A stretch of 54,117 nt of DNA from a virus: IMG/VR virus record IMGVR_UViG_3300045988_074595; one strand, given 5' to 3'. How positions within the stretch are numbered: the stretch's first letter is position 1; each line of letters starts with the position of its first letter. The translations under genes and the position numbers were made by a program. This document shows, piece by piece, positions 5,399 to 54,117 of this stretch. A model generated the notes under the pieces. That model saw nothing but the letters and a program-made list of their open reading frames with translations, had not been told where the DNA came from and did not search any database.

Positions 5399-5881
5399 AT
5401 GAGCAGACAGAGGCTAACAGGTACGGATAACGACGTGTCTAAGACCAAGTTAAATTTTAAACAATTTAAAGGCATTAAGGGACTGTTTGGGACTACTATG
5501 TCCAAACTACCTAAACGGGATCAGTCTTATATTCACGTATCTAAGCAAATACAGAACTTAAGACTAGGCAAAGATTTTGAAGAAATTAGTTTGAAAGATC
5601 TTGCCTATTTCTTTATCGTTCAATTCGAATATGTTTTCGAACAAAGTTGCTTGGACTATAATTGGTTTAACTTTCAAAACACAATTAAACGAATACAGGA
5701 TTATGAACATTTTGAAAATAATGTTCAGTTAGCTAATTTTCTGTATGAAAGTATTCAAATCAGTTATGGAAAAATATACACTGATATTCCATGTCCATTA
5801 ACTTTGTCGACTTTCAAAAGAGCTTGGCTATTAGATATGCTTTTAGGCAAAAATAAACCAAAATTTTCGGGATTTTACTGA
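5399..5881 (+). CDS. hypothetical protein adjacent to the candidate origin (possible replication initiator)
   Basis: 160 aa, RBS aggag. The functional suggestion rests on position only. Confidence 0.5.
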   Translation: MSRQRLTGTDNDVSKTKLNFKQFKGIKGLFGTTMSKLPKRDQSYIHVSKQIQNLRLGKDFEEISLKDLAYFFIVQFEYVFEQSCLDYNWFNFQNTIKRIQDYEHFENNVQLANFLYESIQISYGKIYTDIPCPLTLSTFKRAWLLDMLLGKNKPKFSGFY

Positions 5882-8590: not shown

Positions 8591-9591
8591 AAGTTAACGA
8601 CTTAATGATAAATGCTTCTTGTGAAGATATAATTAGGGAACTTACTATAGAACTAGAGCAGGACTATAATAAGTTCCTATTTAGACGCACAAAAAGCCTT
8701 GGAGCAAATATGCAGTTCTCTTGTCCGTTCCACGCTGGAGGAACTGAACGTCACCCTTCTTGCGGTATGAGCAGGGATGTTCAGTATTCTGCCGGCAAAG
8801 TAATTGAGGCAGGAACAGTTCACTGTTTTACTTGTGGGTATACTGCTCCACTGAATGAATTTATTAGTGACGTGTTTGGACGTAAGGACGGAGGTTTTTA
8901 CGGCAATCAGTGGCTGAAAAGACGTTTTGTGTCCAGTACTGAACAAGTTCGTCCTAAACTAGATTTAGGTTTTTCAAAAACTACCCAAAAGACTGAATAT
9001 AATTATGTTAGTGAAGAAGAGCTAGATAAGTACAGATGGATTCACTCATATATGTACCAACGTAAGCTAACTGACGAGATTATCGAAATGTTCGATATTG
9101 GATATGATAAGTTAAATGACTGCATCACTATGCCTGTAAGGGATATGCAAGGTAGGACAGTATTTTTCAATAAACGTAGTACAGGTAAGAAGTTCCACCA
9201 CTATGCAGAAAGTGACCCTAAAACGGACTTCCTTTACGGAGCTTACGAACTGAACAAATATAGGGACTATTTTAGTGACTTAAGCAAAGTCTACATAACA
9301 GAGTCCGCTATTAACTGTTTAACATTGTGGACATTAGGTATCCCTGCTGTTGCTTTAATGGGAGTAGGTGGAGGCAACCAGTTCAATCTTATTAAGCAAC
9401 TACCTTATCGAACTATTGTTTTAGCATTGGACCCTGACAACGCAGGAGCTATGGCTGCCCAAAAAATTCAACGTAGACTAAAAAATTCGAAAGTAGTTTA
9501 CTTCCTTAATTACCCACAAGAGTGTTGGGATAACAAGTGGGACATAAATGATTGCCCAGAATTGATAGATTTTGAAGATTTGGTATTGTAA
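8587..9591 (+). CDS. DNA primase (zinc-finger plus TOPRIM)
   Basis: Zinc motif CPFH...HPSC...CFTCG. TOPRIM-like ITESAINCL ... ALDPDNAG. TTG start overlaps the helicase stop. Confidence 0.85.
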   Translation: MKVNDLMINASCEDIIRELTIELEQDYNKFLFRRTKSLGANMQFSCPFHAGGTERHPSCGMSRDVQYSAGKVIEAGTVHCFTCGYTAPLNEFISDVFGRKDGGFYGNQWLKRRFVSSTEQVRPKLDLGFSKTTQKTEYNYVSEEELDKYRWIHSYMYQRKLTDEIIEMFDIGYDKLNDCITMPVRDMQGRTVFFNKRSTGKKFHHYAESDPKTDFLYGAYELNKYRDYFSDLSKVYITESAINCLTLWTLGIPAVALMGVGGGNQFNLIKQLPYRTIVLALDPDNAGAMAAQKIQRRLKNSKVVYFLNYPQECWDNKWDINDCPELIDFEDLVL

Positions 9592-9614
9592 TTTAATCTA
9601 TATTACTATATAAT
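9586..9614 (+). promoter_or_regulatory. early sigma-A-type promoter, copy 2 of the cassette, driving the sigma-factor gene
   Basis: TTGTAA, 17 nt, TATAAT within tattactatataata. The UTR ends in aaggagaactaaaataATGAAC. Confidence 0.65.
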
Positions 9615-9648
9615 AGAGTTGTAAACAAAACCAAGGAGAACTAAAATA

Positions 9649-10257
9649 ATGAACAAATATGTAAACGAAGTAATTGAATGTGTAGGACCTCTTACTGATT
9701 GGGAGTGTGTAGGCTTATATACAGTCGACCCTAACGGAGCTTTGGCAGTAAGCTATAAACGCTACGCAGGCATGCTACATTCAATTGGACGTAAATTCTT
9801 CTCGTTTAGTAAGGAGGATATTGACAGCATTGTTTGGGAAACATTGAACAAAGCACTATCTACATTTAAGTTTAACCATAAAGCTAACTTCGCTACCTAC
9901 GTTACTAAACTAATGAACAACGCAATGCGAAATGAGTACCGTGCGTTAAGAGTTACTAGAGTCCAACGTGATTGGTATGTTGATGTTGAATGGGAAAGCT
10001 GTTCAACTGTAGACGAAGAAGATGGATTGAATGTTTTTTCAAGACAGGGCATTGAAGAGGACTGGGGAGCTATTGACATTGAAAATTCAATTGAATCTTT
10101 ACCTCTTACACCTAATCAATATGCCTACATTGAATGTATTGTTCGAAATGGTCACGAGATGAAGGATGTAGAAGTCGCAAAGGAAATTGGAGTGACTAAT
10201 GCTGCTATCAAATGTATCAAAAAATCATTAGCTAAAAAACTAGATGGATTTATTTAG
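9649..10257 (+). CDS. phage-encoded sigma-70-family RNA polymerase sigma factor
   Basis: Region-2-like FATYVTKLMNNAMRNEYRALR. Region-4 HTH LTPNQYAYIECIV...VAKEIGVTNAAIKCIKKSLAKKL. Confidence 0.8.
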   Translation: MNKYVNEVIECVGPLTDWECVGLYTVDPNGALAVSYKRYAGMLHSIGRKFFSFSKEDIDSIVWETLNKALSTFKFNHKANFATYVTKLMNNAMRNEYRALRVTRVQRDWYVDVEWESCSTVDEEDGLNVFSRQGIEEDWGAIDIENSIESLPLTPNQYAYIECIVRNGHEMKDVEVAKEIGVTNAAIKCIKKSLAKKLDGFI

Positions 10258-14545: not shown

Positions 14546-15241
14546 ATGAAAGTCGTAGTTCTTTTAAGTGGAGGAGTTGACTCCACAACTTGCGCAGCTC
14601 TTGCCGTTAGTCGTTATGGCAAAGATAATGTTACAGGACTTACATTTTTGTATGGTCAAAAACATTCAAATGAAATTGAAAATGCACGCAGCGTAGCAAA
14701 GTATTTTGGTATTAAGCTAATTGAAGCTTCTGTAGACAGTGACATTTTTTCAGGATCTACATCTACTTTGCTTAAAGGTGGAGGCGAAATTTCACATAAA
14801 AGTTATGCAGAAATTATTGAACAAAATGGTGAAGGTACTGTAGACACTTACGTACCTTTTAGAAATGGTCTAATGTTGTCACAAGCCGCAGCTCTTGCTT
14901 ACAGTTCTACAGCGGACGAGGTTTGGTACGGAGCCCACGCAGATGATGCAGCAGGGGCAGCTTATCCGGATTGTACTCCAGCATTTTACACTTTTATGGA
15001 CAAGGCTATTTATTTCGGTACCGGCAAAAAAGTTCACTTAAATGCTCCACTAATTGAGTTGAACAAATCTCAAGTGGTAGCCGCTGGGCTAAAAGTAAAT
15101 GCTCCTTACGAACTAACTCGTTCGTGTTACGAGGGACATAAATATGCTTGTGGTAAGTGTGCTACTTGTATTGATCGTTTGAAAGCTTTTGCAGATAACG
15201 GTATTAAAGATCCTGTTCCTTACGAAGTGGAGGTACAATAA
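14546..15241 (+). CDS. queC: 7-cyano-7-deazaguanine (preQ0) synthase QueC
   Basis: PP-loop VVLLSGGVDSTT and C-terminal zinc cysteines CGKCATCIDR. 231 aa. Confidence 0.92.
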   Translation: MKVVVLLSGGVDSTTCAALAVSRYGKDNVTGLTFLYGQKHSNEIENARSVAKYFGIKLIEASVDSDIFSGSTSTLLKGGGEISHKSYAEIIEQNGEGTVDTYVPFRNGLMLSQAAALAYSSTADEVWYGAHADDAAGAAYPDCTPAFYTFMDKAIYFGTGKKVHLNAPLIELNKSQVVAAGLKVNAPYELTRSCYEGHKYACGKCATCIDRLKAFADNGIKDPVPYEVEVQ

Positions 15242-15747
15242 TGCGAGTTTGTAAACAATTTAGTTTTGACGCAAGTCACCAATTAGTTGGTCATTTTGGG
15301 AAATGTGCAAATTTGCACGGACATACTTACAAGCTGGAAGTTTCACTTACTGGAGCAATTCACGAAGAAGGATCTAGTGAGGGTATGGTAGTAGACTTTT
15401 ATCATGTTAAGAAGTACGCAGGTGAGTTAGTAGATCGTTTGGATCATGCGTTCCTTATGCGAGGTAATGAACCTGCCGCAGAAGTAGTTGAGACTAAACG
15501 AGTTAAGTTTGGTTTTAGAACTACGGCAGAAAACATGGCTAAATTCTTAGCATGGTCACTTGGAACTTTAATGCAACCTTATGCTCGTATTGATTTTATT
15601 CGACTTTGGGAAACACCTACAGGATATGCAGAGTGTGACTACTACGAAATTTTCAGTGACGAGGAAATTGAACAATATAAAAAAGTTCAGTTCTTTGACA
15701 AAGACGAGTGTGTGACTTTGGAGGATATTTTAAATGCCAACAAATAA
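15241..15747 (+). CDS. queD: 6-carboxy-5,6,7,8-tetrahydropterin synthase QueD
   Basis: FSFDASHQL ... CANLHGHTYKLEV is characteristic of the PTPS/QueD family. Confidence 0.9.
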   Translation: MRVCKQFSFDASHQLVGHFGKCANLHGHTYKLEVSLTGAIHEEGSSEGMVVDFYHVKKYAGELVDRLDHAFLMRGNEPAAEVVETKRVKFGFRTTAENMAKFLAWSLGTLMQPYARIDFIRLWETPTGYAECDYYEIFSDEEIEQYKKVQFFDKDECVTLEDILNANK

Positions 15748-16531
15748 ATACAATCAACCTGAACGTGGTAATATTAGAATTAACACGCGAGGCAAAGACA
15801 CTATGCCGGTAATGGAAATTTTTGGACCAACTATCCAAGGAGAAGGAATGGTAATTGGTCAAAAAACTATTTTCATTCGAACTGGTGGATGTGACTATCA
15901 TTGTAATTGGTGTGACTCAGCGTTCACTTGGAACGGTACTACAGAACCAGAATACATTTCAGGTAAGGAAGCAGCAGACCGAATTTTAGCTTTAGCTTTT
16001 GACGAAAAGGGTCAACAGATTTGTAACCATGTTACTTTGACAGGAGGTAACCCTGCTCTAATTAACGAACCTATGGCAGAAATGATTTCTATCCTAAAAG
16101 CTAAAGGGTTTAAGTTTGGACTTGAAACACAAGGAACACGTTTTCAAGAATGGTTTAAAGACGTTAGTGATATTACACTAAGTCCCAAACCACCTTCAAG
16201 TGGAATGAAAACAAACATGCGTATTCTTGAAAAAATTGTCGAACGCCTAAACGAGGAAGAACTCGATTGGTCGTTTAAGGTTGTTATTTTCGACGAACAA
16301 GATTTAGCTTACGCTCGTAACTTGTTTAAGGAGTTCGAAGACAAACTTCGTCCTGTTAACTATTTGTCAGTAGGTAATGCTAATGCGTACGAGGAGGGCA
16401 GTATTAGTGGACGTTTACTTGAAAAACTTGGATGGTTGTGGGATCAAGTCTATAAGGATCCTGCCTTTAACAATGTTCGTCCATTACCGCAGTTACATAC
16501 ACTTGTATATGATAATTTAAGAGGAGTATAA
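15734..16531 (+). CDS. queE: 7-carboxy-7-deazaguanine synthase QueE (radical SAM)
   Basis: EIFGPTIQGEGMVIGQKTIFIRTGGCDYHCNWCDS (CxxxCxxC cluster). GGAGG lies 9 nt before ATG 15734; an alternative start is at MPVMEIF. Confidence 0.9.
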   Translation: MPTNKYNQPERGNIRINTRGKDTMPVMEIFGPTIQGEGMVIGQKTIFIRTGGCDYHCNWCDSAFTWNGTTEPEYISGKEAADRILALAFDEKGQQICNHVTLTGGNPALINEPMAEMISILKAKGFKFGLETQGTRFQEWFKDVSDITLSPKPPSSGMKTNMRILEKIVERLNEEELDWSFKVVIFDEQDLAYARNLFKEFEDKLRPVNYLSVGNANAYEEGSISGRLLEKLGWLWDQVYKDPAFNNVRPLPQLHTLVYDNLRGV

Positions 16532-16534
16532 TTT

Positions 16535-17170
16535 ATGATTACAACAGATCAACTGAACAAAATTTCAAACCAACTAGGAAAATCTTCACACGTACAATTA
16601 TCGGTAGCGGATAATACTACTATCGTAAAAGCAGCGGAAGCTTTTCAGAATCTTTTGGGTGTACTTGGGGAAGATCCTGAACGTGACGGACTACAAGAAA
16701 CACCGTTCCGCTTTATTAAGGCTTTGGCAGAACATACTACAGGATATCGTGAAGATCCTGCTCAACACCTTACTAAGACATTCGACGTGGATCACAATGA
16801 CATTGTTTTAGTTAAGGACATTCCATTCAACTCACTATGTGAACACCATTTAGCTCCGTTTGTAGGCAAAGTGCACATTGCATACATTCCAAGTGATAAG
16901 ATTACAGGACTTTCAAAATTTGGACGAACTGTAGAAGGGTACGCAAAACGATTGCAAGTGCAGGAACGTCTTACACAACAAATTGCAGACGCTATTCAGG
17001 AAACACTTGATCCACAAGCGGTAGCCGTTATTATTGAAGCAGAACATACTTGTATGAGTGGACGTGGGATTAAGAAGCACGGAGCTACTACAGTTACTAG
17101 CACTATGCGTGGACTGTTTAAGGAAAATGCGACTGCACGTGGAGAGGTATTGTCCTTGCTTGGTAAGTAG
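16535..17170 (+). CDS. folE: GTP cyclohydrolase I FolE
   Basis: Active-site block SLCEHHLAPFVGKVHIAYIP and QVQERLTQQIA. Confidence 0.92.
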   Translation: MITTDQLNKISNQLGKSSHVQLSVADNTTIVKAAEAFQNLLGVLGEDPERDGLQETPFRFIKALAEHTTGYREDPAQHLTKTFDVDHNDIVLVKDIPFNSLCEHHLAPFVGKVHIAYIPSDKITGLSKFGRTVEGYAKRLQVQERLTQQIADAIQETLDPQAVAVIIEAEHTCMSGRGIKKHGATTVTSTMRGLFKENATARGEVLSLLGK

Positions 17171-17178
17171 GAGGCTAC

Positions 17179-18114
17179 ATGAGTATTGATTTATATTTTG
17201 CAGGTAACGGTGCAAAGGATATTGAAGCCTTCCTTTTGAAAAATAAAGCTAACCGACTATTTACTCAAAAATTCGAACGTAACTCAACTGGAAAAGCATG
17301 GTTTGAGTATATGGACGAAAATCCTGGGTTTACTGGAAAGGTGTTTGTGGACTCTAGTGCGTATGGAGCTTGGACACGGAACATTGACATTGATTTAGAT
17401 GAATATATTGATTATCTAAATGCTAACGACGGTAGGTTTTCAGTTATTGCGTCACTGGACGTAATTCCTGGGTCTAAAGGACACTTCGCTACTCGTCAGC
17501 AGGTACAGGAAGCTAGTGAACAATCTTGGGAAAATTACCTTTATATGTATGACCGAGTACTTGATAAGGAGAAAGTCATTCCTGTTTTCCACGTTGGCGA
17601 ACCTTGGGAGTATTTAGATAAAATTCTAAATCATGTCCATAAAGATGGATCTCAAGTTCAGTATATGGGACTAGGAGGATTAGTAGGTGTTCACAGCAAC
17701 GACCGAATTAAATGGATTGAACAAGTGTTCGATGTTGTTAAGCAAAGTAACAACCCAAATATTAAGATTCATGCTTTTGGGGTTACTAGTTTGAAAATTT
17801 TAGAGCAGTTCCCATTTACATCTGCGGACTCTACTACCGCAGTGCTTACGGGAGCAATGGGAGGTGTGTTGACACCTTACGGTAAAATTAGTTTTGCCCA
17901 AAAGGACGGAGGAGTGAATGCTTTTTACGCACAACCTCAACAGGTACAGGAAGCAGTCCTTAATTTAGTTAAAGAGGCAGGATTTGATTTTACAGTTGAA
18001 GAGATTGTAGACAACTATATTGCACGTGAACTTCTTAACTGTCAGTACTTACTAGATTGGGCAGCAAGTTACAAATATAACCCTCCTAAACATAAACAAT
18101 CCAGATTGTTTTAA
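17179..18114 (+). CDS. dpdA: DpdA-like (tRNA-guanine-transglycosylase superfamily) DNA 7-deazaguanine transglycosylase
   Basis: 311 aa, last gene of the que cluster. N-terminal LYFAGNG...VFVDSSAYGAW resembles phage DpdA proteins (recalled). Confidence 0.7.
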   Translation: MSIDLYFAGNGAKDIEAFLLKNKANRLFTQKFERNSTGKAWFEYMDENPGFTGKVFVDSSAYGAWTRNIDIDLDEYIDYLNANDGRFSVIASLDVIPGSKGHFATRQQVQEASEQSWENYLYMYDRVLDKEKVIPVFHVGEPWEYLDKILNHVHKDGSQVQYMGLGGLVGVHSNDRIKWIEQVFDVVKQSNNPNIKIHAFGVTSLKILEQFPFTSADSTTAVLTGAMGGVLTPYGKISFAQKDGGVNAFYAQPQQVQEAVLNLVKEAGFDFTVEEIVDNYIARELLNCQYLLDWAASYKYNPPKHKQSRLF

Positions 18115-27783: not shown

Positions 27784-28072
27784 AGTTGTTACCACTTGGA
27801 CATTCGAATACCACAACGATCCTAAACCCGTTACCGTTCAAACAGTTCACAAGGATGTTGATGCCTATAATAAAGCATTTAGCAAGGCAATGCAAAAACT
27901 TAACCCTGCTCATGTCGTATCGAACAAATACATTCAGTTAACACCTTTTAACGAAGATCCTAACGCAGAGGAACTAGTAGTGGATCTAGTTATTAGCTTG
28001 GACGAACTGAAAGCTGTTCGAACTAAGTGCAGAGTAATTGAGGAGGTACCTAATATTGAGGGAAGCCGTTAG
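27767..28072 (+). CDS. hypothetical protein
   Basis: 101 aa, overlaps its neighbours. No recognisable motif. Confidence 0.55.
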   Translation: MRTMSKVVTTWTFEYHNDPKPVTVQTVHKDVDAYNKAFSKAMQKLNPAHVVSNKYIQLTPFNEDPNAEELVVDLVISLDELKAVRTKCRVIEEVPNIEGSR

Positions 28073-28445
28073 AGTAATTACTAAAAAAGTGGATGCTTTT
28101 AGACAGGATTATATTAAAGCAAAAGCTCGTATTAGTGTACTTAAAGCATCTCCTACACAGGATACTGAAGTCGAATTGAGTTACTTGGAAAATTATGTTC
28201 ACTGTATAGATGATATGGTTGAAGCTTTTCCTGAAACACAAAGGGAAGTCGTTAAACTATCAATTTTAGGTGACTTACCTCTAACTAAAGTAGCACTTGA
28301 AATTGGGTACCACTATACTTGGGCATTAGAGTTGCGACATAGGGCAGTCCAAACACTTGAAGAAGTTTTAGATCCTGAAAAAGTTATCAGTTCTTCACTT
28401 GGCAAACAGATTGAACAAGTTTTGAAAGAACACGCGCAAAAGTAA
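28056..28445 (+). CDS. ArpU/RinA-like or sigma region-4-like transcriptional regulator (candidate late activator)
   Basis: C-terminal QREVVKLSILGDLPLTKVALEIGYHYTWALELRHRAVQTLEEVL. TTG 28056 lies 9 nt after GAGGAGG. The ORF track begins at TTG 28038. Confidence 0.55.
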   Translation: MREAVRVITKKVDAFRQDYIKAKARISVLKASPTQDTEVELSYLENYVHCIDDMVEAFPETQREVVKLSILGDLPLTKVALEIGYHYTWALELRHRAVQTLEEVLDPEKVISSSLGKQIEQVLKEHAQK

Positions 28446-29229: not shown

Positions 29230-29451
29230 TTATTTAACTGTAATAACTACGATTTTGTCTTCGTCAATTCCAAAGTCTTCTCCGCTCATATGAGCCCATT
29301 CTAAAACTACACTGTTTGCAATTGCTGCGATGTTTTTAACTTGTTCAAAGTTACCTTCAGCTACTACCGCATCATCTGCTACTACCACTGCGTAGTCAGC
29401 TTTGATAAGTTTTTCGAATCCGTTTGATTTTTTCATTTCGTTAAGTTTCAT
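29230..29451 (-). CDS. hypothetical small acidic protein; the only minus-strand gene
   Basis: The real start is the ATG at 29451, 8 nt after AAGGAG on the minus strand. 73 aa (MKLNEMKKSNGFEKLIK...DEDKIVVITVK). It has its own copy of the early promoter. The 122-aa track ORF over-extends into the promoter. Confidence 0.65.
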   Translation of the reverse strand: MKLNEMKKSNGFEKLIKADYAVVVADDAVVAEGNFEQVKNIAAIANSVVLEWAHMSGEDFGIDEDKIVVITVK

Positions 29452-29487
29452 TGTTTTATCTCCTTTGTATCTCTTACTTACAATTAT

Positions 29488-29516
29488 ATTATATAGTAAT
29501 ACGGATATTTTGTCTA
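29488..29516 (-). promoter_or_regulatory. early promoter copy 3 (inverted orientation)
   Basis: The minus strand reads TAGACA, 17 nt, TATAAT within ccgtattactatataatata. Confidence 0.65.
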
Positions 29517-29591
29517 CCCTTTTCGAACATTTTTTTGAAAAAGTTGAATATTTTTTTTGAAAAAAAAAGTGAATATTTTTACGCAAACCTA

Positions 29592-29620
29592 TTGACATTC
29601 TATCCGTATTACTATATAAT
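29592..29620 (+). promoter_or_regulatory. early promoter copy 4
   Basis: TTGACA, 17 nt, TATAAT. The 70-nt block 29591-29660 differs at 1 nt from 31154-31223. Confidence 0.75.
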
Positions 29621-29654
29621 ATACTTGTAAGAAAGATGAAGGAGAACTAAAACA

Positions 29655-30098
29655 ATGAACATTATTTGGAACAGAACTTCACGAAAAGGAATCGAAAACG
29701 AAGATCCTAACAAAGTAGTCAATGGTGTAGCTACTTACAAATATGTAGTAATTGAAGGTCAAGTAACAATATTTGCAGCAGCTTTGGGTAAGAAATATGT
29801 TACACGTGAGCTTGAAGATGAAATCAAAGAACGTGTGTTAGCAGAAATTGACAACGACTTACAACAAAATGAGGACGTAGCTGACGAGGTAGCTAACGAT
29901 GTAGACACAAAGTTACTAAGCAAGTTGCCTAAAAAGGTTCAGCCTTTAGTAGAAGCTTTGTATAAAGATAGTGAAGGTTATTGGATCCATTTAGTACTAA
30001 CTCACTTGTTTGTTAGTACAGACGCTCACACAGAGCATGCTTTAACACTAGCTGAGTTAAGAAAAGCTTGTGGTAAGGCCAACATTGCGGAGGTGTAA
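29655..30098 (+). CDS. hypothetical early protein
   Basis: First ORF after promoter copy 4. 147 aa with an acidic centre. Confidence 0.65.
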   Translation: MNIIWNRTSRKGIENEDPNKVVNGVATYKYVVIEGQVTIFAAALGKKYVTRELEDEIKERVLAEIDNDLQQNEDVADEVANDVDTKLLSKLPKKVQPLVEALYKDSEGYWIHLVLTHLFVSTDAHTEHALTLAELRKACGKANIAEV

Positions 30099-31082: not shown

Positions 31083-31108
31083 GTTCAGTTATTACTGAAC
31101 TTTTTTTT
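31083..31108 (+). terminator. rho-independent terminator
   Basis: Stem gttcagt / actgaac with loop tatt, followed by a T8 run. Confidence 0.75.
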
Positions 31109-31154
31109 ATTGAAAAAAAAATCAAAAAAAAACTCGAAAAAGTTCGATAAGGTG

Positions 31155-31183
31155 ATTGACATTCTATCCGTATTACTATATAA
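31155..31183 (+). promoter_or_regulatory. early promoter copy 5
   Basis: TTGACA, 17 nt, TATAAT. Near-identical to copy 4 through the ATGAAC start. Confidence 0.75.
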
Positions 31184-31218
31184 TATACTTGTAAGAAAGA
31201 TAAAGGAGAACTAAAACA

Positions 31219-33023: not shown

Positions 33024-33033
33024 AGCAAGAAAT

Positions 33034-33070
33034 GTTCAGTAATTAAAACCTACTGAACTTTTTTATTTTC
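33034..33070 (+). terminator. rho-independent terminator closing the accessory block
   Basis: Stem gttcagta / tactgaac with a 9-nt loop, followed by ttttttatttt. Confidence 0.75.
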
Positions 33071-33227
33071 CAACTAAAACAATACTAATAGACATATAGA
33101 AAACAACCAAAAATGCGCAGAAAAGATACACATACACCCATCTAACTATACTAAAACATAACTAATACAAAACCTAAACAAAACCTTATAGATAAAGGAT
33201 CCAAATAAAAAATGCGCAATGTAAAGA

Positions 33228-33825
33228 ACTGAACATCTAACTCTAAATCTATTTATAGTACTAATAAAACAAGTAATAACAAGGGATAATCTAACTATAA
33301 GACTAGGTAATTAGAGTAAGAGATTAAAGCATGGATTCACCAAACAGCGACTTAAACAAACCTATTTCTGAAATCCTTGTAAATAAAGGGTTTTTAAGGA
33401 CTTTACCTACCTTAAAATTAGTGAACAAAACGCTGAAAAACAAGAACTGAACAATGTTCGAAAACCATAAATAACTGAACATTTTCCACTTTCGAACAAT
33501 ATTCGAAAAGACTGAACATCTTAATTTTGAAGAACTGAACAATGTTCGAAAGTACAATAATGTTCGAAAATAATTACTGAACATTTAAGGAACTGAACAT
33601 AAAAGTCGAACAAAATTTAGGTACCTTTTGAACATAAAGAACTGAACATTTATCACTGCTGGTTAATGGAAATTAGTGAACATTTTTAAACCCATAAACG
33701 CTGAACAATTTGACAATAAAGAACTGAACATTTTTAGTAAAAGATAACTGAACAAATTGAAAAACAGTTACTGAACATTTTAGTAAACAAGACCTGAACA
33801 TTTTTAAAACAATATTAACTGAACA
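33228..33825 (+). repeat. array of about 15 CTGAACA plus 2 GTGAACA direct repeats (consensus AACTGAACAWWT) in gene-free DNA upstream of terS
   Basis: The 8-mer cores start at 33228, 33446, 33474, 33511, 33534, 33576, 33592, 33641, 33675, 33700, 33723, 33747, 33770, 33793 and 33818, with a variant at 33420. All are on the + strand. The last six are spaced 23-25 bp apart. Confidence 0.9.
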
Positions 33826-33855
33826 AATATAACATAGAGTCTTATTAGTATGTTA

Positions 33856-33884
33856 TTGATCTTGTGTATAGTTTAGACTATAAT
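33856..33884 (+). promoter_or_regulatory. sigma-A-type promoter of the packaging operon
   Basis: TTGATC, 17 nt, TATAAT, lying 28 nt upstream of ATG 33912. Confidence 0.55.
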
Positions 33885-33911
33885 GTAGTTACTATTATAA
33901 GGAGGACTTAC

Positions 33912-34652
33912 ATGACTGAAAATGTAGCAGGACCTAAAGTTAAGAAGACTCGTAAAAGAGCTAAGACAGGTAAGAAGTCGACCAAACTTAAATCGCGCAT
34001 TGAGCAGGACGAAATGATTGAGTACGATTATAAAGGTGTTAAACTGTCCAAAGCTGAACGCAATGAGCGAATGAAGTTGGAATATATTAGAGGTATGACA
34101 ACTGAGGAGATAGCTAATCGTTACGGTGTTTCAAAAACTACAGTTGAGATCATGCGTTCTAAAGAAAAGTGGGTTAAGCTAAAGAAACAGTTTGACGATG
34201 AAAAGTCATTAGTCACTAACGATACCCTTACTCAAATGTATGCAGGGTTTAAAGTTAGTGTTAACATTAAATACCATAGCGCATGGGAAAAGCTAATGAA
34301 CATAATCGAAATGGCTTTAAACAATCCTGACAAATACCTAATGACTAAAGAAGGACAAATTAGGTGGGGAGCTTTGGATGTTCTTTCAAATATTATAGAC
34401 AGAGCACAAACAGGACAAGAAAAAGCTAACGGCATGATCCCTGCCGAAGTTCAATATAGGTTGCAGATTGAACGTGATAAGCTAACCCTACTACGTAAGA
34501 AGATGGGTGAGGGAGAAGCTGTTGACGATGCTAAGGATAATTTTGTTGAGGCTTTGGACAACGCAGCGGCGGCAGTTTGGAAAGAGTTTGCACAGGAGAC
34601 TGGAGCTTATCTAAAAGAACAAACTGAAACAAAATCAACTGAAGAAAAGTAA
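33912..34652 (+). CDS. terS: terminase small subunit
   Basis: ATG 33912 lies 6 nt after AAGGAGG; the track ORF from GTG 33864 over-extends. HTH MTTEEIANRYGVSKTTVEIMRSK. Positioned at the head of the packaging module. Confidence 0.75.
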   Translation: MTENVAGPKVKKTRKRAKTGKKSTKLKSRIEQDEMIEYDYKGVKLSKAERNERMKLEYIRGMTTEEIANRYGVSKTTVEIMRSKEKWVKLKKQFDDEKSLVTNDTLTQMYAGFKVSVNIKYHSAWEKLMNIIEMALNNPDKYLMTKEGQIRWGALDVLSNIIDRAQTGQEKANGMIPAEVQYRLQIERDKLTLLRKKMGEGEAVDDAKDNFVEALDNAAAAVWKEFAQETGAYLKEQTETKSTEEK

Positions 34653-34718: not shown

Positions 34719-37553
34719 ATGGTTCAAATTGATCAATGGCGTGTTGAATCTCTAACCCTTAACTTATCACCAAAGGGTGGAGCAGAAGCACCTATCGTCT
34801 ATATTAGACAAGGGGACAAGAACGGTATCCGTATCCAAGCTACCTTGTTGGACGATGGTAACATTATTAACTCCGCTTGGTTTTTTGATAAGACTGTAAC
34901 GCTGGAGGGTTATGGTAATGCAGGTGAATTCAGTGTTCCTGCTCATAGTAGTGACGGTAAACTTATCGCCATTCTACCTGCAGCATCTACATTTAAAGTA
35001 GGTCTTATCCCCGAAGTGTTCTTTAGAATTACAGATAAGAATGGAACAGTTGTAGCATCAACTGCGAACTTCCGTATCTATGTAAAACCGGGTGTGATGA
35101 CAAACGCTGCGTCTAAATACTATATCGCAGAAGTTGAAAATGTAATGAATCAATTTTATGATTGGTTCCAACGTCTATCTAAAACATTACCTGATAGTCA
35201 AGTAGCATCTATTGCCGACCAGCTAAGTGATTTAGAAGCAGCTAAAGCAGACTTGTCACTCTTTAACGAAAAGATTGCTGAACTAATGAACGGTAAGGCA
35301 GATGCTAACTATGTTAAAGAAATGCTTACTGCTTTGTCTGGAGGAAATCCTGCTGGTGCTTATGGGTCATTAGATGAACTTAAAAGAGCAGTACCTAACG
35401 GCGGACCGGGTGTTTACGTTGTAGGTGGAGAATGGTTTTATTGGAAGAATGGTAACTGGACTAAGGGTGGAGATTATCAATCTTCAGGTATTGCTCAAAA
35501 CTCAGTAAGTCCTGAAATGACAACCTTTGCACGTTCGACAACTTATTTGATTGATGAATCATCACGTGAGAACTACAAGGTTTATACTAAGAGCGGTAAT
35601 GTAATAGGTTCTTACGATTCGCAAGACTGGAAGAGATATCCACTTATTCCAATTAAGTCAGGTCAAACATTCTACCTCCACGGCTTTTATGGTATCTTTA
35701 GTTTTCAAGTTGGCATGGACAGAAAGACTATTGTTAAGGAAATTAATAGTAGCAAGAATGAGCCTTGGAGTGGAGACTTTTCTGCCGAACAAGATGGTTT
35801 CCTAGCTCTATCTACACAAATTACAATAAACCCAGCAGTCTTTAACCAACCTAAATCTAAGTTAGGGGACTATTTAGCAGATCCTACAGGACATAGATAC
35901 GGAGTATTGAATACTGTTATCCCGTCATTGAAGATTGACGGTAGCCAAGTAACAGGGACAGTTGATCTTCATAACGTGAATGGTATCTATAGTTCAGGTA
36001 ATATGCTTGATAAAGCTACTAAATATCCTGGCAAGTATTGGAGTGGAAGTCCTACGCCAGGAAGTAGCGCAGACTGGGAATGTTTTAGTGCTATTAAGTT
36101 AGAAAAGGGTGTTACTTATTCATTTAAAAACATTCGACAATTCTTTACCTTTGTTACCAAAACTGACGGAACTGGCTGGGAAAAACTTTCAGGGTCTTCA
36201 AACATTAACTACTCAGCTGCTGAGATTGGAGAGTTAAAATACAATGAAGATAAGTTGCTTTGGGTTACTACTAATAACAAGTATGATCAAAACCCTATTG
36301 TCGCTCAACTCACTTTGGATCTTTTGAACAATTATGGGTCACAGGAAAACAAAGTCTTTATCCCAAACCTCATTGTCGCAGATACAAGTGATGTTATTGA
36401 AGTAGGTCCCGGCAAAGAATTTGAAAAAGTATTAGACGCAGTAAATAAAGCAGGAAACATTGCTACACCAGCTCGTCCTATCACTGTTCGAATCTACGCA
36501 GGGACTTACGACCTCTATAAGGAATTAGGTGGTAAGAAATTTGTAGATATTGCAGATAAAACAAACGACGAACGACAAGGAATGATCCTTCCTGACTATG
36601 TAAACTTAGAGGGAGTAGGTAAGGTAGTTCTTCAAATCCTTATTCCCGATAATGAAATTACAGATAATGCCTCTCGTCGTATTAGTCCTCTAAATGTATG
36701 GAAACATAATAGGATTACAGGTATTGAATTTAGAGCTAAAAATACTCGTTATGTAGCCCACTTTGAAACTAATAATCAATTTGATAATAGTGATGTTATT
36801 ATTACGGACTGTCGATTTATTCACGAAGGGAATAAGCAAGGTGTTTGGCAATCTGTTCAGGCGGTTGCAGGTGGTTCAGGTTCAAAGGGACGTTGGGAGT
36901 TTGTACGTTGTTATTTCCAATCAGCTACCACACCATTCTCATTCCATACAAACTTTAATCAAAAGGCTAACTTGTTTATCCTCACTGACTGTGAGTTCCG
37001 TGGTGAGAATAAAAACAACTGGGAAGATTATGCTGTTCGTTTTGGTACTTATGGAACAGGGTCAGAAGATTCAACGGTCTACATGAATAATTGCATTTTA
37101 GATAAACCTGTTTATAACATGGATGAACAATCTAACAAGGGACATGGTAATCACATCTTAATTACTGGGTCAGGAAATACCATGCTTCCTCATAAACACC
37201 GTAACACTAGCGGAGAAGCATTACCTATTCAGTTTGGTGATGAAGTTGTTCAAGCTTATAACAAAACGTCTTCAACTATTGCTAAAGGAACTGTTATTAA
37301 GCTAACAGGTGATAGTTCAGCAGCTATTGCGAATAACAACTTTGAAGCTTATGCCGTTATGTTGTCAGCAGCTGACGCAGGAACTCACGCACCTGCTAAA
37401 TATCGTGGGTTTGTTCAAAACGATGTGACAGGTATTGAACGATTCCCAGAAGGCACAATGATTAAAGTAGAGAACGGACGACTTGTTAAGACTACTGACC
37501 AAAGTGAAGCATGGGCTTATCAAGCTACACCTACACACTTTAAAATCTTGTAA
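34719..37553 (+). CDS. receptor-binding / tail-fibre-like protein: BppU-N-like N-terminus, coiled coil, duplicated beta-rich modules, C-terminal right-handed beta-helix (depolymerase-like)
   Basis: N-terminus IVYIRQGDKNGIRIQATLLDDGN matches the BppU_N/DUF2479 pattern. GVYVVGGEWFYWKNGNWTKGGDYQ is typical of Gram-positive phage fibres. The C-terminus has repetitive N/G/T-rich strands (RFIHEGN..., FVRCYFQS..., LTDCEFRGEN..., YMNNCIL). Confidence 0.6.
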   Translation: MVQIDQWRVESLTLNLSPKGGAEAPIVYIRQGDKNGIRIQATLLDDGNIINSAWFFDKTVTLEGYGNAGEFSVPAHSSDGKLIAILPAASTFKVGLIPEVFFRITDKNGTVVASTANFRIYVKPGVMTNAASKYYIAEVENVMNQFYDWFQRLSKTLPDSQVASIADQLSDLEAAKADLSLFNEKIAELMNGKADANYVKEMLTALSGGNPAGAYGSLDELKRAVPNGGPGVYVVGGEWFYWKNGNWTKGGDYQSSGIAQNSVSPEMTTFARSTTYLIDESSRENYKVYTKSGNVIGSYDSQDWKRYPLIPIKSGQTFYLHGFYGIFSFQVGMDRKTIVKEINSSKNEPWSGDFSAEQDGFLALSTQITINPAVFNQPKSKLGDYLADPTGHRYGVLNTVIPSLKIDGSQVTGTVDLHNVNGIYSSGNMLDKATKYPGKYWSGSPTPGSSADWECFSAIKLEKGVTYSFKNIRQFFTFVTKTDGTGWEKLSGSSNINYSAAEIGELKYNEDKLLWVTTNNKYDQNPIVAQLTLDLLNNYGSQENKVFIPNLIVADTSDVIEVGPGKEFEKVLDAVNKAGNIATPARPITVRIYAGTYDLYKELGGKKFVDIADKTNDERQGMILPDYVNLEGVGKVVLQILIPDNEITDNASRRISPLNVWKHNRITGIEFRAKNTRYVAHFETNNQFDNSDVIITDCRFIHEGNKQGVWQSVQAVAGGSGSKGRWEFVRCYFQSATTPFSFHTNFNQKANLFILTDCEFRGENKNNWEDYAVRFGTYGTGSEDSTVYMNNCILDKPVYNMDEQSNKGHGNHILITGSGNTMLPHKHRNTSGEALPIQFGDEVVQAYNKTSSTIAKGTVIKLTGDSSAAIANNNFEAYAVMLSAADAGTHAPAKYRGFVQNDVTGIERFPEGTMIKVENGRLVKTTDQSEAWAYQATPTHFKIL

Positions 37554-53972: not shown

Positions 53973-54117
53973 ATGCAGGAGACGGAACGTGAATTAGCAG
54001 GATGGTTGGTAACAGTGATTTTACCTATCATCGTATCGTGTGCAGGATTTTATCTAAGCTCACAAAATAAGACTTCTACCCTTGAAAAACGTCTAACAAC
54101 TTTGGAAGTTGTGAACG
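53973..54117 (+). CDS. 5-prime part of the junction-spanning TM/coiled-coil lysis-cassette gene (continues at base 56 of the window)
   Basis: ATG 53973. TM segment WLVTVILPIIVSCAGFYL. The frame is continuous through the 55-nt overlap into 1..222. Confidence 0.6.
   Translation, partial: MQETERELAGWLVTVILPIIVSCAGFYLSSQNKTSTLEKRLTTLEVVN
54063..54117. repeat. 55-nt exact copy of bases 1-55 (circular-assembly overlap)
   Basis: Compared base by base: caaaataagacttctacccttgaaaaacgtctaacaactttggaagttgtgaacg is present at both ends. Confidence 0.95.

Follow-up and report, generated by a model that had tools for sequence, protein, structure and literature searches.

The DNA directly upstream of the terS-like gene of a Streptococcus siphophage carries an array of 17 NTGAACA sites, which is real and far above chance and which, from the comparison of related genomes, is well supported as a protein-binding array in general. 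Concerning its function, we tentatively favor control of the late/packaging promoter through a phage-encoded sequence-specific protein, i.e., the array would be an expanded variant of the Ltr-type repeat system.

Genome context

The window, i.e., the whole stretch of DNA that was analyzed (54,117 nt), is a complete circular Dp-1/MS1-like Streptococcus siphophage. Its ends overlap by 55 nt, which implies a circular assembly of ~54.06 kb. A distant BLAST search linked it to the Streptococcus phages MS1 and Dp-1 only, with 70-74% identity over the gene at 33912-34652, and protein mapping shows a gene set common to the window and MS1/Dp-1 (queuosine/DpdA genes, a DnaC/DnaB/DnaG/PolA replisome and two sigma-like genes). 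Protein mapping furthermore identifies a TerL of the Terminase_6N/Terminase_3 type and an SPP1-type portal. The + strand carries all genes of the window but one. The replication genes are found at 1.9-13.5 kb, and this module is ~27 kb away from the array.

The array resides in the gap at 33024-33911, which has the last early-type gene on its left and the first late-operon gene on its right. The former encodes a homologue of MS1 gp31, which is basic and carries a zinc ribbon at its C-terminus. The gap is the largest ORF-free stretch of the window's + strand, with 840 nt up to the GTG at 33864 or 888 nt up to the ATG at 33912, in agreement with the original prediction, which regarded an 840-bp gap as the largest non-coding structure of the genome. 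Its GC content is 27-30% in all four parts. The early operon diverges from the gap in MS1 and Dp-1, while it lies on the + strand in the window lineage, where its promoter is relocated to ~31155 with a second copy near 29593. Despite this inversion of the neighboring operon, the array remained with the terS promoter.

The region and the genes that are relevant for its interpretation comprise the following parts.

28038..28445, + strand: gene of a sigma-region-4-like 135-aa protein, homologue of MS1 gp21, which is annotated 'RpoD'
33034..33064, no strand assigned: hairpin with T-run (GTTCAGTA..TACTGAAC TTTTTT), just past the stop codon of the upstream gene
33109..33218, + strand: two AAAAATGCGCA boxes (33109-33119 and 33208-33218)
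33222..33245, + strand: distal single site TAAAGAACTGAACATCTAACTC
33324..33584, - strand: spurious ORF built of repeats
33335..33400, + strand: conserved non-coding element of ~60 nt, directly upstream of the array
33415..33675, + strand: irregular half of the array, nine NTGAACA with five TTCGAA palindromes and two TCGAACA interleaved
33676..33825, + strand: phased half of the array, seven (C/G)TGAACA
33819..33825, + strand: promoter-proximal site, its GAAC starting 58 nt upstream of the -10 hexamer and its centre near -69
33856..33884, + strand: sigma-A-type promoter of the late/packaging operon (TTGATC, 17 nt, TATAAT)
33912..34652, + strand: terS-like gene, 246 aa

The RBS AGGAGG is located at 33900-33905, and the GenBank records of MS1 and Dp-1 annotate promoters where the window has the terS promoter.

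Composition of the array

Between 33229 and 33825, we count 14 CTGAACA, two GTGAACA (33421, 33676) and one TTGAACA (33628), and all 17 of these NTGAACA sites are on the + strand. The array consensus is aAArAACTGAACAWWT. The original prediction had listed about 17 sites in one orientation, among them two GTGAACA, which is what we find; its number of 15 exact CTGAACA has to be corrected to 14. The gap also contains two TCGAACA (+ strand) and five TTCGAA, the latter in the number given before.

Successive sites are spaced by 192, 26, 28, 37, 23, 42, 16, 35, 14, 34, 25, 23, 24, 23, 23 and 25 bp. That is, the array ends in a phased run from 33676 to 33819 with spacings of 25, 23, 24, 23, 23 and 25 bp. 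Phasing at 23-25 bp had been proposed for the last six sites; the spacing holds, but the run comprises seven sites. Array and terS promoter are 30 bp apart, as had been reported, given that the last core extends to 33825 and the -35 hexamer begins at 33856. Longer units recur as had been reported, i.e., an exact 22-mer is found at 33442 and 33530, and taaagaactgaacat is present three times in the gap (33222, 33635, 33717). The composite unit AAGAACTGAACAATGTTCGAAA, exact at the same two positions (33442 and 33530), is also present in a type-B1 relative, and the composite CTGAACAATGTTCGAAA is common to the window and one type-B1 genome.

We compared these counts with the expectation by chance. 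Dinucleotide shuffles of the gap (n=2000) yield on average 0.83 NTGAACA and at most 5, and a Poisson model with the rate taken from the rest of the genome gives P=5e-21 for the array. The orientation bias of 17:1 has a P-value of 1.4e-4, where the sole minus-strand copy of CTGAACA (33033) forms one arm of the hairpin that terminates the upstream gene. Outside of the gap, 34 CTGAACA are seen vs 29.7 expected from the 5-/6-mer composition. Since this composition accounts for the copies outside of the gap, a genome-wide signal (Chi-like, modification or restriction motif) is discarded.

A structured RNA is also dismissed, given that no Rfam match was obtained at E<=1 and that no promoter reads through the array. 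The minus-strand ORF at 33324-33584 consists of the repeats and is rich in F, S and L. Across the gap, the minus strand stays free of stop codons for at most 86 aa in the window but for 111 aa in one and 68 aa in the other of its two closest relatives, from which it follows that the ORF is spurious, as had been suspected, and a real gene on this strand is rejected.

Conservation among related phages

We compared the gap with ~45 related genomes or fragments from IMG/VR as well as with MS1 and Dp-1. An array is present in all ~45 relatives and always at one place, i.e., between the ~60-nt conserved element and the terS promoter. Such a comparison had been proposed as a check of the conservation of repeat number and phase, and its outcome is twofold: the array is kept in place, while repeat number, spacing and motif vary by lineage.

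With regard to the motif, lineages use CTGAACA, GTTCGAAA, TCGAAAAGTCGAAC, GGAACA/TTCCAAA and others, and a GAAC/GTTC core is common to all types. The following types are distinguished.

Type A (window and two close relatives): CTGAACA
Type B (MS1 and most contigs): AGTTCGAAA plus few CTGAAC
Type C (Dp-1): (C/T)TCGAAAA plus GTCGA(A/G)C
Type D: GGAACA plus TTCCAAA
Type E: GTTCAAAAG, GTTCGAA and TTGAAC
Type F: CTGAAAA plus GTTCGAAAA

GAAC-type and TTCGAA-type sites seem to form two classes that are mixed in the arrays in varying proportions. Spacing is 23-25 bp in the window vs 8-9/22 bp and 17-18 bp in other lineages, and the copy number within other lineages is 9-16 cores. Within the phased half, a relative close to the window (L081) lacks exactly one 24-nt unit.

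The change of motif is not confined to the array. The distal site TAAAGAACTGAACATCTAACTC is positionally homologous to 'TTTCGAACTATCTACTAATAAA' of MS1-type phages, i.e., the motif changed at a single-copy homologous site too. This is also reflected in the single-copy boxes, which switched along with the array and read AACTGAACATCTAAC in the window vs TTTCGAACTATCTAC in MS1 at homologous positions. Further left, 2-4 GCGC-containing boxes are found in the relatives where the window has its AAAAATGCGCA boxes, and all lineages keep an 'xGAAC + T-run' at the left end of their gaps. The ~60-nt element at 33335..33400 reads GGATTCACCAAACAGCGACTTAAACAAACC...GTAAATAAAGGGTTTTTAAGG in the window and GACTTCCACAAACC...CCAAGGGTTTACA in the relatives.

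Screening Logan/ENA contigs and scanning with the sigma-like protein for further lineages returned only those already known. In phiCTP1, the phage of a TerS homologue, no comparable array is present upstream of the respective gene.

Selection on the site cores

We counted variable columns among core columns (GAACA, TTCGAA) and among spacer columns for individual lineages and compared both by a Fisher test.

Lineage A (3 genomes): variable core 4/109 vs spacer 43/250, P=1.6e-4
Lineage B1: variable core 3/67 vs spacer 110/261, P=3e-10
Lineage B2: variable core 8/52 vs spacer 91/247, P=0.003
Lineage C: variable core 11/61 vs spacer 90/236, P=0.004

Cores are less variable than spacers in four lineages, which implies that the sites are under selection. 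Given in addition the unit loss in L081 and the varying copy number, the array evolves by gain and loss of units while its cores are held by selection. Judged from these alignments, this would be the expected behavior of the binding sites of a sequence-specific protein. The original prediction of a protein-binding array is therefore strengthened, i.e., the position is kept in ~45 genomes, the motif is switched by lineage and the cores are less variable in the four lineages listed.

Relation to the late promoter

The distance from the proximal GAAC to the -10 box is 58 nt in type A, 59 nt in B1, 61-62 nt in B2 and 61 nt in both D and E. The spacers of A, B1 and B2 are not alignable with one another, yet the distance stays within 58-62 nt. 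Genomes of types C and F that have a proximal GAAC show 82 nt to the -10 box, which is 61 + 21, i.e., an addition of two helical turns. Class-I-type activation would require such a site, kept near -70 and on a given side of the helix. In lineages A and B, on the other hand, the -35/-10 pair of the late promoter is already good, so that an activator may not be needed.

Out of the three functions named in the original prediction (packaging initiation, replication origin, control of late transcription), the last one is best supported. The term 'operator', which had been used for it, is less fitting, since the data suggest activator sites instead.

Within the reading that we tentatively favor, the array would provide the sequence-specific protein-binding sites of the late operon promoter, with packaging, head, tail and lysis genes downstream. 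A phage-encoded DNA-binding protein, for which the product of 28038-28445 is a candidate, would read the GAAC-centered sites. It would occupy the site fixed at ~-70 and, in a cooperative manner, the phased sites upstream of it, such that site occupancy would switch on or tune late transcription. Compared with the 2-4 repeats of known systems, the array would have expanded to ~17 over 600 bp. As a second class, the interleaved TTCGAA-type sites may be read by another protein, possibly the terS-like one. The data show the array, its conserved position, the motif switching between lineages, the selection on the cores and the constant distance of the proximal site; we infer the binding itself, the identity of the binder and the activating effect. 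The 600-bp array exceeds what activation requires, and a dual use of the array is plausible.

Candidate readers of the sites

To find the reader of the sites, the mosaic relationships among the lineages served as natural experiments. We scanned 43 proteins for alignment columns that are identical between types A and D and between E and B, i.e., that mirror the GAACA-type motifs of A and D. While the background for the whole genome is 68 vs 53, two proteins are enriched, namely a 160-aa protein (8 vs 3) and the 135-aa protein of 28038-28445 (5 vs 0), where the covariation rests on ~7 lineages and is confounded by phylogeny.

For the 135-aa protein, matches to ECF-sigma region 4 of NCBIfam (E=5e-5 to 2e-3), to Sigma70_r4_2 of Pfam (E=0.013) and to SigD region 4 of the PDB (E=0.1, with a typical region-4 alignment) are all under curated cut-offs; phrog_36 'transcriptional regulator' is matched with 3e-7. 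Its structure model is of low confidence, with a pLDDT of 64 that drops below 50 in the HTH. The protein is among the most variable ones between D and E (70% identity vs 95-97% for TerS), and identity falls to 43-47% within motif type B.

The putative recognition helix of this protein follows the pattern GYHYTW-x-x-x-LR. Its classes track the motif classes, i.e., ALE (A, D), VLE/VLA/VHA (B, E) and VHQ (C), though for ~7 lineages and by conservative changes, and the helix positions expected to face the DNA are identical in A, D, E and B1 despite the differing motifs. The protein is not basic (pI 6.5, 20 K+R vs 21 D+E), and its gene is placed 5.5 kb upstream of the array with about ten genes between. 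A GAAC/AAC core is typical of -35 elements that are read by ECF sigma region 4.

We also related the protein to Alt of TP901-1, which is a DUF722 protein (E=4e-72). Comparing the profile of the 135-aa family with Alt by hhalign gives a probability of 0.13, which is not significant, and the Pfam search of the 135-aa protein shows no DUF722 match; a 96% identical homologue is labelled DUF722 in nr. Taking the sequence evidence together, the sigma-region-4-like 135-aa protein appears as the best candidate reader of the GAAC-type sites.

Three further proteins are dismissed as readers. The first gene of the neighboring early operon encodes small acidic proteins whose families span motif types and differ within type B. 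The gp31-like Zn-ribbon protein is 95% identical between D and E and does not track the motif. Finally, the ECF-like sigma factor (9649-10257) has a region 4 helix that is identical in B2 and D, whose motifs differ.

The terS-like protein and a possible role in packaging initiation

The terS-like protein is composed of a basic N-terminal tail, an HTH at about aa 52-86 (sub-threshold matches) and a conserved helical C-terminal part covering two thirds. It is a homologue of Dp-1 gp36 and MS1 gp38, whose genes directly adjoin or overlap terL; in the window, the terS-like gene and terL are separated by a 944-aa gene. Its match to the TerS family phrog_509 is weak (E=1e-5) and covers the HTH only, its main family is phrog_23746 of unknown function, and homologues in nr are named 'Middle operon regulator'. 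No significant fold match was obtained for the AF2 model, which has a pLDDT of 57. Calling 33912-34652 terS, for which synteny and the sub-threshold HTH speak, is thus tentative.

If the assignment is correct, the array could be the pac recognition region. An oligomer of the terS-like protein, with its N-terminal HTHs arranged in a ring, would then bind to the repeats and mark concatemers for the first cut by terminase; perhaps the protein would also throttle its own promoter, as was proposed for SPP1/SF6. We consider this reading rather unlikely. The array is directly upstream of the terS-like gene, as is SPP1 pacL with its direct repeats boxA-C (PMC4737164), and stayed with terS when the neighboring operon was rearranged. 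The related phage MS1 packages by headful from a pac site according to PhageTerm, with no position given (PMC5511896). The basic tail and the HTH are in line with DNA binding by TerS, and many sites of the same orientation would suit a ring of 8-11 HTHs. Furthermore, TTCGAAA-type sites occur in nearly all lineages alongside the conserved TerS helix, and TerS S75A in D/E accompanies a relaxed centre GTTCnAAA, which is a single evolutionary event.

These arguments have to be weighed against the lack of a corresponding change in the protein. Within residues 1-100, the terS-like proteins of D and E are the same except for a few N-terminal residues and one tail residue, and those of F and one C genome are the same except for one residue, although the arrays of D vs E and of C vs F differ in both site classes. 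For the whole protein, identity is 94-97% between D and E and 96-100% within D. A DNA-binding region that is alike in sister lineages with differing arrays argues against the terS-like protein as the specific reader, a role that we regard as unlikely from these alignments. Moreover, the best-studied TerS HTH has little sequence specificity and selects bent DNA, while strict 7-mer cores are under selection here. The gap shows no AAA/TTT periodicity at 10-11.25 bp above shuffles, i.e., no significant A-tract phasing; peaks near 11.5-11.75 and 23 bp are due to the repeat as such. The uncertain TerS assignment itself (weak phrog_509 match, low pLDDT, no fold match) lowers the probability further. 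That is, from the original proposal of TerS recognition sites at a packaging initiation region, the location and the headful packaging in the family stand, while the comparison of TerS residues 1-100 with the arrays and the A-tract analysis speak against it.

Contig ends cluster in the gap in 14 of 41 loci. Their positions are scattered over 266-1229 nt upstream of terS, so that they are rejected as physical genome ends and do not mark one for pac either. More likely, they are assembly breaks in a hypervariable region.

Other possible readings: replication origin, combined functions and host proteins

The original prediction had also considered the repeats as iterons, i.e., a phage initiator would bind them and open AT-rich DNA such that the DnaC/DnaB/DnaG/PolA replisome is loaded. 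The repeats share one orientation, number up to 17, recur every 23-25 bp, which is close to two turns of the helix, and change quickly between lineages. Iterons of plasmids and lambdoid phages are such same-orientation, fast-changing repeats. The array is part of the largest non-coding region of the genome, and the phage must have an origin, for which no other place was found. A possible binder is the 160-aa protein (5399-5881, phrog_33206) encoded just upstream of the DnaC-like loader, which is the most variable one of the replication module (72% between D and E) and shows the strongest signal in the A=D/E=B scan. However, no DNA-binding domain is recognizable in this protein, and the columns that covary are scattered over it. 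The array is neither flanked nor overlapped by an initiator gene, its neighbors being the gp31-like Zn-ribbon and the terS-like genes, and the conserved core covers only 7-12 bp. In 33024-33911, no DnaA box TTATCCACA with <=1 mismatch is present, and no distinct AT-rich element stands out given the 27-30% GC throughout the gap. An origin also leaves unexplained why the proximal site is at a constant distance from the -10 box. Thus, spacing and single orientation fit an origin while adjacent initiator, DnaA box and AT-rich element do not, and we consider this function improbable.

The array might also serve as a composite switch, with a sigma-region-4-like factor on the GAAC-type sites and the terS-like protein on the TTCGAA-type sites sharing one 600-bp platform. 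The many sites would then act as a sink or timer that is sensitive to copy number and that links the beginning of late transcription with that of headful packaging, with the specificity re-set in each lineage. If true, such lineage-specific resetting would isolate co-infecting relatives. We deem this scenario speculative and quite improbable.

Finally, the sites might be read by a host protein (LytTR-type regulator, XerS or nucleoid protein), or by two proteins at the interleaved classes, with the motif differences following the host species. For this speaks that no phage protein tracked the motif cleanly; in addition, the reverse complement aaTGTTCAG presumably fits 8/9 positions of the LytTR consensus, LytTR sites are direct repeats ~21 bp apart, and we take the boxes TTCGAACTATAATTT of the relatives to resemble the streptococcal dif site. 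But types D and E have different motifs, although their head proteins are 93-100% identical and their hosts are probably similar, and the 23-25 bp spacing of the window is replaced by 8-9/22 and 17-18 bp elsewhere, which makes this explanation hardly probable.

Discussion

We identified an array of sites that is maintained by selection, changes between lineages and is placed at the starting point of late transcription and packaging. Among the lytic siphophages known from pneumococci and oral streptococci, the Dp-1-like ones are the main group, and they attract interest for therapy and as a source of lysins. The types A-F represent natural 'swap' variants. If the array is an expanded Ltr-type platform, as we tentatively favor, the paradigm would extend from temperate to virulent phages, and the array would show how site number and specificity evolve.

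Ltr proteins, among them a Sigma70_r4 family, recognize 2-4 direct repeats that precede terS, with the specificity determined by their C-termini (PMC3753634); Alt of TP901-1 binds repeats from -76 to -32 (PMC3152322). The Ltr superfamily (RinA, ArpU, LtrA/Sigma70_r4, LtrB/DUF1492, LtrC) and Alt share with the window the placement of direct repeats before the promoter of a terS-led operon. In these systems, a small phage protein with C-terminal HTH, which is sigma-region-4-like in LtrA, reads the repeats, and both repeat sequence and protein specificity vary between related phages (PMC3753634; PMC3152322). The differences are the two interleaved site classes, the candidate gene, which is 5.5 kb off and encodes a protein that is not basic, and the virulent lifestyle of the phage. 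Also, the 135-aa candidate shows no significant similarity to Alt/DUF722. Known Ltr/Alt systems have 2-4 repeats in ~60-120 bp right after the activator gene, while the window has ~17 over 600 bp. To our knowledge, no Ltr system has more than about four repeats, i.e., the site number of the window is about four times larger.

The iteron origins of RK2, R6K and P1 as well as lambda ori resemble the array in their same-orientation repeats ~22-24 bp apart that co-evolve with a specific binder. They differ in that iterons are 17-22 bp long, lie beside or inside the initiator gene and are accompanied by an AT-rich element for unwinding and, in many cases, by DnaA boxes; of these, none was found here.

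The pac region of SPP1/SF6 (pacL-pacC-pacR, bound by G1P) is likewise a repeat-bearing region 5' of terS, in a headful siphophage; the SPP1-type portal is shared with the window. SPP1 has few short boxes and a bending-based recognition with weak sequence specificity, whereas the window has many strict cores and no significant A-tract phasing, and the DNA-binding region of its terS-like protein does not track the motif changes. The SPP1/SF6 pac overlaps the terS promoter region, which shows that packaging and transcription can be coupled (PMC4737164).

The homologous gaps of MS1 (KY629621, 19.7-20.3 kb) and Dp-1 (HQ268735, 20.4-21.5 kb), for which the GenBank records annotate promoters and RBSs only, sit between divergent operons, unlike that of the window, and their motifs are different (AGTTCGAAA in MS1, TCGAAAAGTCGAAC in Dp-1). 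In position, in the flanking conserved elements and in the type of array, both correspond to the window.

Non-coding elements upstream of the terS-like gene

Two kinds of element lie beside the array of NTGAACA sites, in the gap preceding the tentative small-terminase (terS-like) gene.

33335-33400 (in relatives' loci, L001 3520-3590, L005 3610-3680, L002 3455-3520): about 60 nt of conserved non-coding sequence
33109-33119 and 33208-33218: AAAAATGCGCA boxes inside the gap

The ~60-nt element, which in the relatives takes the form GACTTCCACAAACC...CCAAGGGTTTACA, adjoins the array on its upstream side in every lineage and could be a cleavage site, a phage sigma-factor promoter or a further binding site. 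At a position matching the window's AAAAATGCGCA boxes, the relatives carry two to four GCGC-containing boxes, while the gap is otherwise AT-rich.

With regard to genome form, positions 1-55 and 54063-54117 of the window are identical in sequence, i.e., its two ends overlap by 55 nt, and the assembly is therefore circular with about 54,062 bp. Among the 41 IMG/VR contigs with this terS-like gene (L080-L118), 14 end upstream of the gene, scattered over distances of 266-1229 nt. These ends are probably assembly breaks in the hypervariable, repeat-rich gap and not physical genome termini.

Promoter classes and sigma-like genes

Two promoter classes and two sigma-like genes were found in the window.

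29520-29655 and 31090-31218, also 1400-1503 and 9585-9650: strong, near-identical early promoters, TTGACAttctatccgtattacTATATAATATAcTTGTAA
About 10275, 14470, 18170 and 25840: second class, TGGTGTATAyTAwAGTATA, ahead of middle-type gene blocks
9649-10257: ECF-like sigma factor of 202 aa with regions 2 and 4
28038-28445: protein of 135 aa, sigma-like solely in a region-4-like part that follows a predicted long helical hairpin

On their upstream side, the early promoters show long T/A runs together with TGAAT, TGAAC and TTCGAA words. The second class is palindromic and has an extended -10 without a -35; a similar box (GTGTATAGT) occurs in the window's terS promoter region but is not kept in the relative L081. 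The gp31-like gene, directly upstream of the gap, is split in lineages D and E (L035/L045): one ORF of 153 aa covers the N-terminal part, and the zinc ribbon has its own ORF of 63 aa.

Comparison with MS1 and Dp-1

14546-18114: queuosine-precursor and DpdA-like genes
34719-37553: 944-aa ORF with a BppU_N-like N-terminus
410-1261: endolysin (Amidase_5 and zoocin A target-recognition domain)

The queuosine-precursor genes and DpdA-like genes are conserved relative to MS1 (QueC 79% and transglycosylase 73% identity). In Dp-1 DNA, dPreQ1 is present at about 1.7% of G residues (PMC6884629); G is present in every array core.

The 944-aa ORF separates the terS-like gene from terL, whereas in MS1, Dp-1 and other relatives both genes are direct neighbors or enclose 1-2 small ORFs. 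Judged by its matches (BppU_N in Pfam, E=6e-4; phrog_17240, 2e-15), its N-terminus resembles tail, baseplate or receptor-binding type proteins.

The endolysin has the zoocin A domain and is not of the choline-binding type known from Dp-1 and MS1, and the host is thus probably a non-pneumococcal streptococcus. Finally, the early operon (gp25-37) runs leftward in MS1 and Dp-1, while the homologous block of the window is re-ordered and placed on the plus strand, with a sole minus-strand gene left (29230-29598).
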